From NCBI RefSeq assembly GCF_988243305.1, contig NZ_OZ547136.1: a DNA stretch of 64,000 bases; one strand, written 5' to 3'. The notes under the pieces were generated by a model. It was given only the letters and a program-made list of their open reading frames with translations. It was not told where the DNA came from and made no database searches. This document shows positions 38,223 through 47,998 of this stretch, piece by piece. The stretch's first letter is position 1; every line of letters starts with the position of its first letter. Position numbers and translations under genes: made by a program.

Positions 38223-38723
38223 ATGCGCATAGTTACCGCTGCCGTCATGGCCTCAACGCTGGCAGTCAGTTCATTAAGCCACGCTGCTGAAGTCGGTTCA
38301 GGCGATAACTGGCATCCGGGTGAAGAACTTACGCAGCGCAGTACGCAGAGCCATATGTTCGACGGCATAAGTTTAACCGAACATCAGCGTCAGCAGATGC
38401 GAGATCTTATGCAACAGGCCCGGCACGAACAGCCTCCTGTTAATGTTAGCGAACTGGAGACAATGCATCGCCTTGTCACCGCAGAAAATTTTGATGAAAA
38501 CGCTGTGCGCGCACAGGCAGAAAAAATGGCGAATGAGCAAATTGCTCGTCAGGTTGAGATGGCAAAAGTCCGCAACCAAATGTATCGCCTGTTAACGCCG
38601 GAGCAGCAAGCGGTTTTAAACGAGAAACATCAACAACGAATGGAGCAGTTGCGCGACGTGACGCAATGGCAAAAAAGTTCATCGTTGAAGCTATTGAGTA
38701 GTAGCAACTCACGTTCCCAGTAG
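38223..38723 (+). CDS. cpxP: Periplasmic Cpx pathway inhibitor/chaperone CpxP
   Basis: 166 aa from [21 protein letters not shown]; two LTXXQ motifs. Confidence 0.9.
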
Positions 38724-38727
38724 TAAA

Positions 38728-38790
38728 CCCTGTTTTCCTTGCCATAGACACCATCCCTGTCTTCCCCCACATGATGTGGGGGTTTTTTTT
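38728..38790 (+). ncRNA. cpxQ: CpxQ sRNA (cpxP 3'UTR-derived) with intrinsic terminator
   Basis: ttttccttgccatagacaccatccctgtcttcccccacatgatgtgggggtttttttt immediately after cpxP stop. Confidence 0.55.
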
Positions 38791-38875
38791 ATCAATTACT
38801 TACATGCAATCAAAAGTAAAAACAGGTACTTATCGAAAGCTGTAAGGGTTTGGAGCGGTTTCAAAATTTCTTGAG

Positions 38876-38894
38876 TGTGGACACTATGTGGACA
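38876..38894. promoter_or_regulatory. Tandem TGTGGACA repeats (candidate Int arm-type binding sites) near attL
   Basis: tgtggacactatgtggaca upstream of int 3' end; recalled P2 Int arm consensus. Confidence 0.35.
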
Positions 38895-38909
38895 TTCAGA
38901 GGGGGAAAT

Positions 38910-39890
38910 TTATAACGTCACTCCGCCTTTTAGTGGATTCAGAGCGACGGCATTTTGCAGATAGTCAGGCGCAAGGTGCGCATAGGCCATCGTCTGCTGA
39001 ATGCTCGCATGTCCCAGAATCTGTTGCAGTGCGATTATATTGCCCCCATTCATCATGAAATGGCTTGCGAATGTATGCCGCAGGATGTGGGTTGCCTGAT
39101 TGGGTGGTATATCAGGTTTCACTCTGCGTAAAATCCCGCAAAATTTCTCATAATCAACTTTGAATAATTTGGCGCTGGCCTCCTCTTTAACTTTTTTCTC
39201 CAGTTCCTCAGAAATCGGCACGGTTCGCTTTTTACCGTTTTTGGTTTTCAGGAAGGTAACCCTGCAATTTGTAATCTGTGCTGGTTTTAGCGTGGCAACT
39301 TCCGTCCATCTTCCTCCGGTGCTCAGACATAAAAGCGCGACAAGTAAGTCATCACCAGCCAAAACATTTAACAGTTTTTCGATTTCTGCTTTTTCCAGGA
39401 ACGTCATTTCAGGGTTGGCCTCCGCCAGTGGCGGCAGTCCGTGAATTGGGTGTTGCCCGGAAAATTCATCCAATTGAATTAATTTTGTGAACATGCCGGA
39501 TAATCGGTACATGTCACGGTTTATCGTTGCGGCACTGATACCATCACGTAGTCGCATGGAACGATAATCCATCAAAGCCCTTTTGCTCATCCTGCTCACT
39601 GGTATATCACCTATGCCGCTGATGGTTTTGAGTAGATGATTAAACTCTTTTGTTCCATGCTCGTGGTTTTGCCCGTGATATTTCCACCAGATGTCCAGCA
39701 ACTCACTCAAAGTCCGGCGGTCTGCTCGCTGGCCTCCCCATTCTTTCTGACTGGCATTGGCGATTGTGTATCGCTCAAATGCTAGTGCTTCAGCTTTTCT
39801 TTCGAATTTCCTGCGGATGCGTTTTCCGTCGCGACCGCGAGGTCTAATGTCCACTTCATAGCGACCATCATCGAGCTTCTTAATTGCCAT
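38910..39890 (-). CDS. int: P2-like tyrosine integrase
   Basis: Protein from MAIKKLDDGRYEVDIRP...; C-terminal HxxR...Y catalytic motifs (ATHILRHTF, MAYAHL). Confidence 0.9.
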   Translation of the reverse strand: MAIKKLDDGRYEVDIRPRGRDGKRIRRKFERKAEALAFERYTIANASQKEWGGQRADRRTLSELLDIWWKYHGQNHEHGTKEFNHLLKTISGIGDIPVSRMSKRALMDYRSMRLRDGISAATINRDMYRLSGMFTKLIQLDEFSGQHPIHGLPPLAEANPEMTFLEKAEIEKLLNVLAGDDLLVALLCLSTGGRWTEVATLKPAQITNCRVTFLKTKNGKKRTVPISEELEKKVKEEASAKLFKVDYEKFCGILRRVKPDIPPNQATHILRHTFASHFMMNGGNIIALQQILGHASIQQTMAYAHLAPDYLQNAVALNPLKGGVTL

Positions 39891-39959: not shown

Positions 39960-40253
39960 TTAGCCAATCCTTTTCGCGGAGTGGTTGGACTCTGTTGACT
40001 CTGGCCCAATGTGCGCGAGAGCCGGTGCGATTTGTCCTGCGTCCGGCGCGGTTTTATCTGTCATAAGCCATAGAGCATATTTTTGGAATGTGGGATGCAT
40101 AGTGATTTTTAGCAAAGCTGTGCCACCGGGTTCAAAGTTTCCTCCTTCATATTTTTTAAGTGTGCTTAGCGGTAACTCTATGATTTCACAGAATTTTGAT
40201 TGGCTTAGCCCTTCAGCCTCACGCAAGGCCTTAATCTTTTCGCTTAATTTCAT
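39960..40253 (-). CDS. C: P2 C-like immunity repressor
   Basis: 97 aa; similar to P2 C (…TKYALWLMTDKTAPDAGQIAPALAH…). Confidence 0.8.
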   Translation of the reverse strand: MKLSEKIKALREAEGLSQSKFCEIIELPLSTLKKYEGGNFEPGGTALLKITMHPTFQKYALWLMTDKTAPDAGQIAPALAHIGPESTESNHSAKRIG

Positions 40254-40264
40254 TTGACATGGTG

Positions 40265-40374: not shown

Positions 40375-40662
40375 ATGAGGGTACCATATATGGACGCTGA
40401 AAATTATGTGATTCAGTATCCGCTTGATGCGGTTCATGTGGATAAATTTGCTGATTTATTAGGGAAGCCAAAGACAGCCGTCAGTGAAATGGTGAAGGCA
40501 AATAAATTACCAATTATTGAATTGCGTGATCCTTGCAAACCGAAGGCTCGTGCCGGTGAAAAATGGGTTTTCATTCCTGAGTTTAATCGCGCTGTACGTG
40601 AGGCGTTTTATAACCGACCGGTTGAACAGCGTGATGCATGGCTTTTGTGGATGGGGTTGTGA
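40375..40662 (+). CDS. cox: Cox-like excisionase/repressor
   Basis: 95 aa, similar to P2 Cox (…KLPIIELRDP…RAGEKWVFIPEFN…WLLWMGL). Confidence 0.75.
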   Translation: MRVPYMDAENYVIQYPLDAVHVDKFADLLGKPKTAVSEMVKANKLPIIELRDPCKPKARAGEKWVFIPEFNRAVREAFYNRPVEQRDAWLLWMGL

Positions 40663-44684: not shown

Positions 44685-44940
44685 GTAAAAATACAGCGTG
44701 ATTTTATATGTCTTTGAATGGATTATGCGAAACACCTCTAAGGTAGATGAGGAGCAATAGCGTGTTGAATCAGAAGGCTAAATTGTATTGAATCGTTAGC
44801 ATGTAATTGAAGGCAGCTATTTGATTCGAGTCATAAAAGAGCATCTATTTCGGTTAATAAAACCATTGCGAGTGACTTTATGTCGAAGCATAATTCATCT
44901 CGAGCGAAGTCTTGCTAGTCTTTCATCGGATTGATGACGG

Positions 44941-44975
44941 GCGCAAAAAAACCACCCTGGCAGGTGGTTTTTTTG
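44941..44975. terminator. Bidirectional intrinsic terminator (A-run/hairpin/T-run)
   Basis: aaaaaaaccaccctggcaggtggtttttttg. Confidence 0.6.
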
Positions 44976-44976
44976 T

Positions 44977-45090
44977 TTGAAGCATACTAAAGAAAAATAC
45001 TTACATGGATATTACTGACGTTTACTGACAAACCACTCGGACTACCATATGGATAGCCAAAGAGGGCCAGAACGAGAATGCAGTAATAGC
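44977..45090 (-). CDS. Candidate small protein (37 aa, MKKCYYCILVLALFGYPYG…) with strong SD
   Basis: AGGAGG 4-5 nt upstream of ATG on minus strand; below ORF-track size cutoff; ends at bidirectional terminator. Confidence 0.3.
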
Positions 45091-45822
45091 ACTTCTTCAT
45101 ATCGCCTCCTGTAAGCAGAGGGCAATTTCCGCCGATATATGCGCTTCTAAGGCGGAGTGACTATTGAGCGAAGTCTTGCCCTGAAATAATGCTCTGTTTA
45201 AACGCAAAGTGATCTGGCATATCACCGAACAGAGGACCTGAACAACACAACATATAGTATGTCGTTGTTTCTGGTTGCATTTTATGTTGTGTAATACTGG
45301 TTTTGCATCAAGGATGTTTGAGCTTTTTTTGATATAGCTCAAAGTAAAAAGCAGAGACTACGGATGATAAGGTCTTGAAAGCAATGTAAATTTTTTAAAG
45401 TTGTGAGTGGCTAGAAATGCACAGTTTCAATATGGCGGATTTAAACAAGTAATTAAAAATAGCGACACAAATTCCAATAAAATCATTAAGTTGCGTTTTC
45501 TGTGGAAACTTCGGTGACTCTGAAATTTTCTTTTAGTATCGCTGAGGTTTAACAACTCGCTGCGCAAGTAGTTAGTGTTTTTTTTAACTCAATATTCTGA
45601 TTTATAAGGTTTTTTATAAATCGTGGGCTGGTTGCGCATATTCATCTCGTGTTATCAGCAAAGATAAGCTCTATATGCAGAACTGAATGCATATATGATG
45701 TCGAAAATGTTATGGGAAAACGTGGATTAGTGTTATAGTAATGGCTGAAAAACAGCCTTGACATAAAATAACAACTGTGATATGGCTGTGCATACTTAAC
45801 TTTTTTAACGTAGGAGGCAACC

Positions 45823-46308
45823 ATGAGCTATGCAGCTAAAAAACTGCTTGACCGCTATTGGGATCGCCGACTACCTGTCGATCCGTTTAAGCTTGCTAAA
45901 GCGTGGGGTGCTCGTGTTGAAGCACTTGAGGAATCGGCTTATAACAACGATGGGTTAAGCGGTCTGGCTGTCATCAAAAAGGGTGTCCATAGGATTTATT
46001 TTGATTCTAGTGAACATTCTAATCGTCAACGTTTTACTGTTGCACACGAGTTAGGTCATCATGTGCTGGGGCATACCCAGGACGGAGAGTACCATCGGGA
46101 TAATGTCGGGAATTATTCAACAGGTGCTCGTGATTACCGTGAGGTTGAAGCAAACAAGTTTGCTGCTGAGTTGTTAATGCCTGAGTCTGCTATACGTCAA
46201 TTGGTATCCAGAGAAGGTATTGATAGCACTTTGAGATTAGCAAGCATCTTTAATGTATCAGAAGCCGCTATGCATTGGCGCTTAAAGAGCTTAGGAATGG
46301 CTTATTAA
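45823..46308 (+). CDS. ImmA/IrrE-family Zn metallopeptidase (DUF955-like)
   Basis: HEXXH motif HELGHHVLGH; strong SD AGGAGG; AT-rich cargo gene at P2 tin/old position. Confidence 0.7.
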   Translation: MSYAAKKLLDRYWDRRLPVDPFKLAKAWGARVEALEESAYNNDGLSGLAVIKKGVHRIYFDSSEHSNRQRFTVAHELGHHVLGHTQDGEYHRDNVGNYSTGARDYREVEANKFAAELLMPESAIRQLVSREGIDSTLRLASIFNVSEAAMHWRLKSLGMAY

Positions 46309-46374
46309 TTAGCCTTTAACTTTTAACCTGTTTAAAATCACCTTTACGTTTGTACATGTAAGGGTGATTTTTTT

Positions 46375-46974
46375 ATGGCTGATATTGATTTATCTGGACA
46401 GTCCCCAGAGCAAGGAACCACTCCTAAGGGCGATTTAGATCCTGATATCCTTATAAGGCGAGATAGACGGGATGGTATAGAGCGTAGAAGTATGCGATTA
46501 GTGCTCTCTGCCGTTGTGCTTTGTTTTGCTTGTACATTTCTATGGCAGGGGCTTAACTTTGCTTTGGCTGTTGGAAATGGCTTGCTGGAAGCGAAAAGCA
46601 GTATTGCCGCAGCGATAACACAAAAAGTAGATACACAAACTTGTGTTTCAGCAGAAAAATGTTCTGCTTTATCTTCGGATCCGAAGATGGCTGATGAGAG
46701 GATAACACCATCTTCAGACACTAATAAAGTTAGAAAATCTATTTCTGGTTTATCCACCGATTGGTTATCGGCCAGTTCTCTAATAGCTATTGTTGCATTC
46801 ATCCTTGGTGTGGGTTTAACTTTGCTTTTGACTCTTCTTAAATCAGCATTTCAACACCCGACAGATAAAGACTTTAGAACAAAGTCGACATCTAATACTA
46901 TTGAGTTGGCCACGCCAATCAGTGAATTAATAATTGGTGTTCTGAATATAATTAAAGACAAACTATCTAAGTAA
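46375..46974 (+). CDS. Small membrane protein (two predicted TM helices), co-directional with the metallopeptidase
   Basis: Hydrophobic stretches LVLSAVVLCFACTFLWQGLNFALAVG and LIAIVAFILGVGLTLLLTLL; 66-nt gap after upstream gene. Confidence 0.5.
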   Translation: MADIDLSGQSPEQGTTPKGDLDPDILIRRDRRDGIERRSMRLVLSAVVLCFACTFLWQGLNFALAVGNGLLEAKSSIAAAITQKVDTQTCVSAEKCSALSSDPKMADERITPSSDTNKVRKSISGLSTDWLSASSLIAIVAFILGVGLTLLLTLLKSAFQHPTDKDFRTKSTSNTIELATPISELIIGVLNIIKDKLSK

Positions 46975-47056
46975 AGCATTAGTTGTGATTTTTTATTGGT
47001 TTTAGTGATAATACATCTCCAGTACTTATTGTTACTGGAGAGTATTTTTAGTCGTT

Positions 47057-47998
47057 TTATATTTTTAATGTTAGTGAATGATATTCACGAGAGTTCACGT
47101 TCGATGTGATGTAATCGGGGGCGTTAACACCAAGAATCGCAACGAGTAATCGGCAAATTAAAGCCTGCATTTGTTGTAATATGTCATCTCCATATTGATA
47201 ATTGTTAATAGTGGTAAAGCCAAGTGGTTGACCATGAAACATAGCTTCATGAAAGTTTTCATTGCGGATGTTTGTAATGTTTTTTTTACCTGTAACCCAT
47301 GATGGTCGTGGTATTCCATAAGTTTTGCAGATCCACTTCAAGCGCCTGGAGTGATTTAGAGTCTTTTCTGTACACTTGTTCTTTTCTGCCCATGTTAAAG
47401 CAAAGCAACTATCCAGTGCCATATAAAGATACTGGAATTTTTCGAAGCTAAGGTATTGTGGGTTTTGGGATAAAAATAGTGCATGCACTATTGCTGCTAT
47501 ATTTATTGGTGCGTGTTTGGTTTTTGTCTCGCTAGACATGTATTTGAGTGCTAATTCTATAACCTCTTTTTCAGAGCACTTGACCAGAATAAAGTCAGTT
47601 AATTTGCTGGGTTTTATTGGGGTTGCGTCTAAAAAACCGGCATCAGTAGTTGTTAATCTTATCCCTTTGAAAAAAGACAGACACCACACAGCAAAATTGA
47701 GAGTTTCTAGTGAAGATGTATTTTTTAATTTTAGTGAGTGTGTTTTGGGTAAGCCAAATACTCGTTGGCTAAAAGGCATTGTGGATATGCCTCCATTGAG
47801 GTTATATACTTCTTGGTTTCCTGGGTATATCCAACCGTTAATAACATTTCTGTGATTGTTTATAAGATTTGTTTTTTCCGCTAGACCGGGTAAAGTAAGT
47901 AAAGAAAAATCATCAGTTTCAACGTTAACTTCTACTGGATAGTATCCAAACTCAGCTTCAATATCATTGGATTGCTGTTCGTCAACTTTACCTTGCAT
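47057..47998 (-). CDS. Hypothetical protein, 313 aa, AT-rich, no recognised domain
   Basis: ORF with GGAG SD; transcribed from cos side toward gpA. Confidence 0.5.
   Translation of the reverse strand: MQGKVDEQQSNDIEAEFGYYPVEVNVETDDFSLLTLPGLAEKTNLINNHRNVINGWIYPGNQEVYNLNGGISTMPFSQRVFGLPKTHSLKLKNTSSLETLNFAVWCLSFFKGIRLTTTDAGFLDATPIKPSKLTDFILVKCSEKEVIELALKYMSSETKTKHAPINIAAIVHALFLSQNPQYLSFEKFQYLYMALDSCFALTWAEKNKCTEKTLNHSRRLKWICKTYGIPRPSWVTGKKNITNIRNENFHEAMFHGQPLGFTTINNYQYGDDILQQMQALICRLLVAILGVNAPDYITSNVNSREYHSLTLKI

Follow-up and report, generated by a model that had tools for sequence, protein, structure and literature searches.

The segment at 38724-38910 is very probably the left attachment junction (attL) of a P2-like prophage of the WPhi/L-413C type (Peduovirus), inserted at the known attachment site (attB) between cpxP and fieF in such a way that the 3' part of the small RNA CpxQ is restored by the phage. 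Both the integration site and the type of phage are already known. In the window, i.e., the whole 64-kb stretch of DNA that was analysed, cpxP lies directly to the left of the junction, while in related lysogens fieF is found beyond the right attachment site (attR).

On the host side, cpxP occupies 38223..38723 on the plus strand (166 aa, from the open reading frame list; Pfam LTXXQ, E = 8e-22). It is the source gene of the 3' UTR from which CpxQ derives, ends with a TAG stop codon at 38721-38723 and is annotated as cpxP in every matching E. coli record. The cpxP/CpxQ Rho-independent terminator is located on the same strand at 38764..38790, 41 nt from the stop codon, as judged by a terminator scan and RNA folding. 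Its stem, at 38764-38782, has 8 pairs (6 of which are G-C) closed by a 3-nt loop, and is followed by a run of 8 T at 38783-38790. A first-pass annotation, made from the sequence alone, had described an intact cpxP terminator hairpin, an integrase gene (int) ending approximately 190 bp past cpxP and tandem repeats beside int. The terminator scan confirms the hairpin and its T-run, the gap measures 186 bp, and the repeats are 2 copies of TGTGGACA, starting at 38876 and 38887; every sequence feature named in that annotation could be located in the window.

CpxQ is an Hfq-dependent sRNA of approximately 58 to 60 nt that is cut by RNase E from the cpxP 3' UTR, with its seed at the 5' end and the cpxP terminator as its 3' end (PMC9438474; PMC6755755). 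The sequence in the window agrees with this description, as it lies in the cpxP 3' UTR and has its 3' end at the cpxP Rho-independent terminator. Counting 58 nt, the published length (PMC6755755), back from the U-tract would put the 5' end near 38733, and we therefore place CpxQ at 38733..38790 (plus strand), the 3' end being given by the terminator U-tract and the 5' end solely by that length. The predicted fold has 3 parts: a single-stranded 5' end, stem-loop 1 with the sequence AGACA-CCAUCCC-UGUCU (38746-38762), and the terminator. In the DNA, stem-loop 1 (38746..38762, plus strand) corresponds to the dyad AGACA-CCATCCC-TGTCT, in which 7 bp separate two 5-bp arms. In an Rfam scan of the plus strand, no family was matched apart from weak terminator-like hits. 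On the minus strand, RF02628 (Hrs1) matched 38718-38790 with 44.5 bits, which is under its gathering score of 56.4; Hrs1 is the orthologous cpxP/fieF sRNA family of Erwinia (PMC4070566).

The attachment core was defined by comparing attL, attR, the phage site (attP) and the empty attB. The sites read were the empty site of DH10B, the attR of strain EC1, the attP of WPhi and of L-413C, and a circular P2-like element of 32,330 bp. The right end of the window prophage is beyond the window, and attR was read in EC1 and other lysogens as proxies. EC1 is the best-matching complete genome (99.1% identity over 89% of a 24-kb query), and its prophage shows 99% similarity to the window prophage. All sites read have in common the sequence GACACCATCCCTGTCTTCCCCCACATG(A/C)TGTGGGGGTTTTTTTTATC, which is 47 bp long (45 bp in the circular element) and occupies 38747..38793 (plus strand) in the window as the attL copy of the core. 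The sequence GACACC...TTTTATC is present in the EC1 attR and in the WPhi and L-413C attP exactly as in the window, and the window core is identical to the WPhi and L-413C attP cores at 47 of 47 positions. A 601-bp junction query matched all 5,425 cpxP-bearing E. coli genomes; in prophage-free genomes, the homology ends at query base 294, which is 38793 in the window. A second copy of the core, the expected attR, was sought in the 64-kb window and is absent, leaving a single copy. Judged from relatives (31.5 kb separate the cores in EC1), the prophage would extend past base 64000. In EC1, the region upstream of fieF is joined to attR.

The core spans CpxQ stem-loop 1, the terminator, the U-tail and 3 nt beyond the U-tract, overlapping approximately the last 44 of the 58 nt of CpxQ, with the seed outside. 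The first-pass annotation had placed the core so that it would overlap or abut the sRNA 3' end, and the core at 38747-38793 does fall within CpxQ. The overlap between core and sRNA is larger than had been supposed there.

Beyond the core, the P' arm (38794..38909, plus strand) is phage DNA that is missing from empty sites and separates the core from int; it is 96.6% identical to L-413C and approximately 70% identical to WPhi. The int gene (38910..39890, minus strand) encodes a tyrosine integrase of the P2/WPhi type, with 326 aa by the RefSeq start in a reading frame that is open to 39920, and matches the Pfam domains Int_N (99 bits) and Phage_integrase (71 bits). Its stop codon (38910-38912) is 116 bp from the core, and the gene is convergent with cpxP. 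Further into the prophage follow the immunity repressor gene C (39960..40253, minus strand; a helix-turn-helix protein matching Pfam HTH_3, with C at the same position in WPhi and L-413C) and cox (40375..40662, plus strand; Pfam Phage_Cox, E = 1e-23), which encodes the excision directionality factor and Pc repressor and is annotated as Cox in homologous prophages. The order int-C-cox is that of the P2 early region with divergent Pc and Pe, a promoter-like TTGACA being present at 40254 between C and cox, and this order together with the Pfam matches substantiates the earlier assignment of the element as P2-like. The sequence features that bear on a possible Int-, IHF- (integration host factor) and Cox-dependent integration and excision are the intact int frame, both arm repeats and an IHF-consensus match.

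The 2 TGTGGACA octamers in the P' arm, P'1 at 38876..38883 and P'2 at 38887..38894 (both plus strand, P'2 starting 11 bp after P'1), were suspected from the outset to be Int arm-type sites. Octamer frequency by itself is compatible with a chance repeat that has no role, given that 2 copies are observed in the 64-kb window and 1.96 are expected by chance. However, the copies are only 11 bp apart, an adjacency that is not chance-like, and a second pair is present on the P arm at fixed offsets: in WPhi and L-413C, TGTGGAC repeats are found at -67, -56, +129 and +140 from the core start. The window pair is the +129/+140 pair; the P-arm pair is seen in homologous attR and attP sites, and the window holds the P' pair. 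The repeats are exact in WPhi despite only approximately 70% identity in the rest of its P' arm. In the circular element, whose Int is 67% identical, TGTAGAC/TGTAGTC repeats occupy the same 4 offsets, a change that is as would be expected for arm-type sites co-varying with their integrase. Finally, the window repeats match the published consensus for P2-type arm repeats, tgTGGaCa (Nilsson et al., PMC3448106). The fixed offsets, the conservation in WPhi and the consensus match together argue for arm-type sites, and a chance origin of the pair is barely credible. A candidate IHF site, TATCAATTACTTA, lies across the boundary between core and P' arm at 38790..38802 (plus strand). The IHF consensus WATCAANNNNTTR is matched nowhere else in the 64 kb, against 2.9 matches expected anywhere, and the motif is retained in WPhi as TATCAATCACTTA; IHF may bind at 38790-38802.

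Comparison with known phages places the element in the WPhi/L-413C type of P2-like phages. Over the core and int, identity is 99% with L-413C and its relatives and 95% with WPhi. WPhi has the same 47-bp core, the same host site, the same 4 arm repeats at the same offsets and the same ogr-attP-int-C-cox order, whereas its int region is 95% identical, its P' arm is approximately 70% identical from the core to the arm sites, and its C/cox immunity region differs, as judged by annotation and protein identifiers of WPhi-like lysogens. The relatives of L-413C (P24B2, HQ103, vB_YpM_50, P2_AC1 and FSLSP004) share 99% identity over core and int, and the attP of this group is identical, at 96 of 96 positions, to the phage half of the window junction joined to the P arm of EC1. 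The members of the L-413C group were isolated as free phages, on Yersinia pestis or Salmonella, whereas the element described here is integrated in E. coli. The L-413C attP core has been reported as identical to that of WPhi (Nilsson et al., PMC3448106), and the Yersinia genomes sequenced by then had no attB matching L-413C (PMC3448106). As for the host site, cpxP-fieF is the listed location of prophage Wphi1 in E. coli W (PMC3032704), and a prophage of approximately 31 kb between cpxP and fieF is listed for an O157:H7 outbreak strain (PMC7609406) and also for Salmonella Infantis.

Phage P2 itself offers a mechanistic precedent, with a heterobivalent tyrosine integrase and paired direct repeats on both arms as in the window type (PMC3448106), arm sites of the sequence TGTGGACA, and Cox as directionality factor (PMC3448106; PMC3936717). 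P2 uses other host sites, whereas the core of the window type is a 47-bp copy of the 3' part of an sRNA. The P2 core is shorter than, and unrelated to, the WPhi-type core. Phages that integrate at the 3' ends of RNA genes include 186 (in a tRNA-Ile gene) and Fels-2 and SopEPhi (both in ssrA). In such cases, a phage-borne duplicate of the 3' portion of the RNA keeps the gene intact (PMC3448106); for E. coli W, K-12, B and Crooks, P2-like elements are listed at rybB, cyaR and ssrA (PMC3032704), and the sdsR locus is a noted phage attachment site (PMC3333887). The window junction has the same character, as the block of identity reaches 3 nt past the U-tract and the int-proximal junction carries the phage allele. 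Unlike the tRNA, tmRNA and sRNA genes used by other phages, CpxQ is not a free-standing gene and is cut from the 3' UTR of an mRNA.

A natural polymorphism allowed us to locate the recombination event within the core. Position 38774 (plus strand), in the terminator loop, is the only variable base of the core, with A in the window, in all phage attP sampled and in most hosts, and C in K-12-like hosts such as DH10B. For the phages, A is found in 10 records that exactly match a query with the A version, and in WPhi, L-413C and the circular element, which were read directly. Among the 4,593 empty E. coli sites, C is present in approximately 900 to 930 (approximately 20%) and approximately 70% exactly match the A-version query; the empty site of Salmonella Infantis SARB27 also has A. 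We then read 7 lysogens with C at attR (ST167, 800, AF51, M217, 005008, JSMCR1 and 41EC2), and all 7 have A at attL. They span at least 2 clearly different prophages (2 or 3 lineages): one contains numerous IS elements together with a helicase gene as cargo, another has Dcm and ParB-domain cargo genes, and a third form is a 1.9-kb int-ogr remnant. Six of the 7 share the CpxA protein allele of K-12, while 005008 has another, and the K-12 allele in those lysogens fits a C-type host site. A 96-nt attL query with C found no 100% match among the 819 attL junctions, the best match being 99.0%. The equivalent attR query with C was matched at 100% in 6 of 28 sampled attR rows; this corresponds to roughly 170 of 785 genomes, a figure extrapolated from rows sampled at even intervals (6 of 60), and the resulting fraction resembles the approximately 20% C of empty sites. 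With the phage allele at attL and the host allele at attR, both exchanges would have to be to the left of 38774, within 38747-38773.

The distribution of these alleles bears on where the integrase acts. With A in the loop, the terminator DNA forms a perfect palindrome of 19 bp, CCCCCACAT-G-ATGTGGGGG, and as such is the most obvious recombinase dyad in the core. Exchange could be centred on it, with the hairpin arms as core-type sites and the loop in the overlap region. However, an A/C mismatch in the overlap would give a heteroduplex, and C would be expected at attL in about half of the cases, whereas each of the 7 lysogens read with C at attR has A at attL, and 0 of 819 attL junctions are exact to the C version. 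We rejected the terminator palindrome as the crossover on this asymmetry between the attL and attR alleles, and consider such an exchange very improbable. A phage that carries C and recombines to the right of the loop was likewise rejected: the attP of the L-413C group, of WPhi and of the L002 element carry A, and the predominance of the K-12 CpxA allele among lysogens with C at attR also speaks against it. The allele data, in other words, point to strand exchange left of 38774. A candidate for the crossover in that interval is the stem-loop 1 dyad (38746-38762), which may provide the core-type sites of Int with a 7-bp overlap region. In its predicted fold, AGACA-N7-TGTCT has a 5-bp stem and a 7-nt loop, a geometry resembling that of an anticodon arm, and lies within the interval to the left of 38774. 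The anticodon stem-loop is the classic target of phages that integrate into tRNA genes.

It had been proposed in the first-pass annotation that lysogeny could alter CpxQ. Three observations lend this some plausibility: the core overlaps approximately 44 of the 58 nt of CpxQ, the loop base changes from C to A upon lysogeny in C-allele hosts, and beyond 38793 the host sequence is swapped for phage DNA. However, attL is 100% identical to many prophage-free genomes from cpxP to 38793, i.e., to 3 nt past the U-tract, and at the level of DNA the CpxQ 3' end is the same as in prophage-free strains. The CpxQ sequence is hardly altered because the phage carries an identical copy of its 3' segment. The proposal is not supported in substance, since the phage copy restores the sequence; the single exception concerns C-allele (K-12-like) hosts, which receive the C to A change at 38774. 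Even there, CpxQ is predicted to adopt the same structure with the same energy (-17.4 kcal/mol) with either base, the 8-bp stem being the same after the change, and A likewise occurs at most empty E. coli sites and at the empty site read in Salmonella. That integration changes the sequence, 3' end or termination of CpxQ, leaving lysogens with an altered non-coding arm of the Cpx response, is improbable in our view, and CpxQ expression is likely to be unchanged in lysogens.

An indirect effect could also be envisaged, in which the prophage Pc-C-int transcript, which converges on cpxP, would be extended by read-through into RNA antisense to CpxQ and thereby affect CpxQ or cpxP. The corresponding transcript of the free phage would meet a terminator on the ogr side. 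This option is reminiscent of lambda sib, with 3' contexts that differ between prophage and free phage. The genetic layout would permit it: int is convergent with cpxP, the terminator scan found no terminator-like site on the minus strand from int to the core, the cpxP hairpin lacks a T-run on its minus-strand side, and in attP a hairpin flanked by an A-run and a T-run is present approximately 100 bp beyond the core. On the other side, the argument is drawn from sequence, a G+C hairpin of this strength could nevertheless halt or destabilise transcripts, the prophage is present in approximately 15% of E. coli genomes, and no link of CpxQ to a prophage or integrase was found in the literature searched. 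We regard this scenario as unlikely. More generally, any regulatory effect of lysogeny on CpxQ seems unlikely from the sequences at hand. That the prophage, besides probably supplying most of CpxQ (stem-loop 1, terminator and Hfq-binding U-tail) in approximately 1 in 7 of the complete RefSeq E. coli genomes searched, would also tune the non-coding Cpx arm, either by antisense read-through or by a seedless CpxQ 3' copy at attR acting as an Hfq decoy, is improbable as well.

The reading that we favour, restoration of CpxQ by the phage, may be summarised in mechanistic terms as follows. The attP carries a 47-bp copy of host sequence, comprising CpxQ stem-loop 1, the terminator, the U-tail and 3 further nt. 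A heterobivalent Int would bind the paired arm sites (TGTGGACA twice per arm, one helical turn apart) and the core, and, placed by the 4 arm sites and probably by IHF, would recombine near the left end of the identity block. The remainder of the block could then serve as a replacement cassette for the stem-loop 1, terminator and U-tail of the host. After integration, the 5' seed of CpxQ would be host DNA and the terminator loop, 3' half of the stem and U-tail would be phage DNA, so that probably most of the 3' approximately 44 nt of CpxQ is phage-derived in lysogens. Since the phage DNA at the 3' part of CpxQ has the same sequence, cpxP termination and CpxQ would be preserved, and the region upstream of fieF would be kept intact at attR. 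This would be the logic familiar from phages that use tRNA and tmRNA gene 3' ends as integration sites.

The arrangement is common in the species. The attL junction is present in approximately 15% of complete E. coli genomes (791 to 819 of 5,426, the 601-bp junction query being matched in full in 791), with the matching attR in 785 and an intact attB in 4,593 of the same set, although these genome counts are not counts of independent integration events. Literature on CpxQ with prophages or integrases yielded no link of the WPhi core or of phage integration to CpxQ, and that on cpxP-fieF with prophages yielded only listings of prophages at this locus, none mentioning a link to CpxQ. The overlap of core and CpxQ follows directly from published sequences and is a small added detail to a known finding; it leaves the understanding of P2-like integration and of the Cpx response unchanged. 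For annotation, the site is the published WPhi-type site, and cpxP, CpxQ and fieF are not disrupted by the prophage. The definition of the WPhi core predates the discovery of CpxQ. This core corresponds to the 3' two-thirds of the sRNA, so that an sRNA derived from a 3' UTR joins the list of RNA genes that are targeted and rebuilt by phages. The natural loop polymorphism locates the strand exchange, and a K-12-type C is converted to A by lysogeny. When CpxQ alleles are compared or the cpxP 3' UTR is engineered, the sequence found in a lysogen may accordingly be of phage origin.

The Rfam family RF02628 (Hrs1) matches window 38718-38790 on the minus strand with 44.5 bits (gathering score 56.4), i.e., on the reverse complement of CpxQ. 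Apart from weak terminator-like hits, CpxQ on its own strand has no match to any Rfam family. Hrs1 of Erwinia amylovora is described as a 74-nt, Hfq-dependent sRNA located between cpxP and fieF; it shares the strand of these two genes and ends in a Rho-independent terminator (PMC4070566). Given this shared position and strand, the terminator and the Hfq dependence, Hrs1 is the orthologue of CpxQ, and the RF02628 model as stored seems to be in antisense orientation.

The same host site is found outside E. coli. Salmonella Infantis SARB27 carries an empty cpxP-fieF site at 1501-1547 of AFYI01000005.1, a bacterial WGS contig that sits in the "phages" collection. The 47-bp attachment core there does not differ from the one in E. 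coli and in the phages, and has A at the variable position in the terminator loop (the loop base). Salmonella is lysogenised by the same phage group because its empty-site core is identical to that of the phage.

A circular sequence of 32,330 bp (L002, NZ_JBQJRQ010000002.1), deposited under the label "plasmid unnamed3", is a whole P2-like genome, perhaps a prophage in an excised or replicating state. The CpxQ core that it shares with the window spans 45 bp (3001-3045), and the Int proteins of the two have just 67% identity. The arm repeats read TGTAGAC/TGTAGTC, with the four offsets exactly as in the window's phage type. L002 looks like a second integrase lineage that targets the same host site.

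The stretch of the P arm that separates ogr from the core contains the ogr terminator hairpin AGCCCCTCAGTTGAGGGGCT (approximately 9690-9720 on the reverse strand of L001, and 497-525 in L004, both homologous sequences compared with the window). Because the hairpin has an A-run on its upstream side and a T-run on its downstream side, it could, judging from the sequence, terminate transcription bidirectionally. Reading downstream from int on the circular phage genome, one meets the core and then this hairpin; in the prophage, the hairpin and int are parted. The arrangement may be likened to lambda sib.

The window's prophage also has a variable cargo region (44690-47998), beyond the replication gene, which may be a defence or regulatory module. 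Its first approximately 1.1 kb is AT-rich and contains no ORF of at least 90 aa. This is followed by an M78/ImmA-IrrE peptidase (45823-46308; Pfam Peptidase_M78; PADLOC capP-like, E 1e-30) and by 2 ORFs, at 46375-46974 (plus strand) and 47057-47998 (minus strand), neither of which has a match in Pfam or PADLOC.

Prophages at cpxP-fieF can be strongly decayed. In one widespread prophage lineage, that of the ST167-type lysogens (L006, L011, and L014), insertions of IS150, ISEc22, and ISEc12 have left the prophage heavily degraded, with a split replication endonuclease gene, missing tail genes and a core-to-core size of 19.7 to 38.2 kb; it is probably no longer inducible. The att sites are intact at both ends. 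E. coli JSMCR1 (NZ_CP030152.1) has a remnant of 1.87 kb between cpxP and fieF, containing only int, a truncated regulator and ogrK. The 47-bp core is still present at both ends, with loop base A at attL and C at attR, and the remnant illustrates how the site decays with cpxP/CpxQ and fieF left intact.
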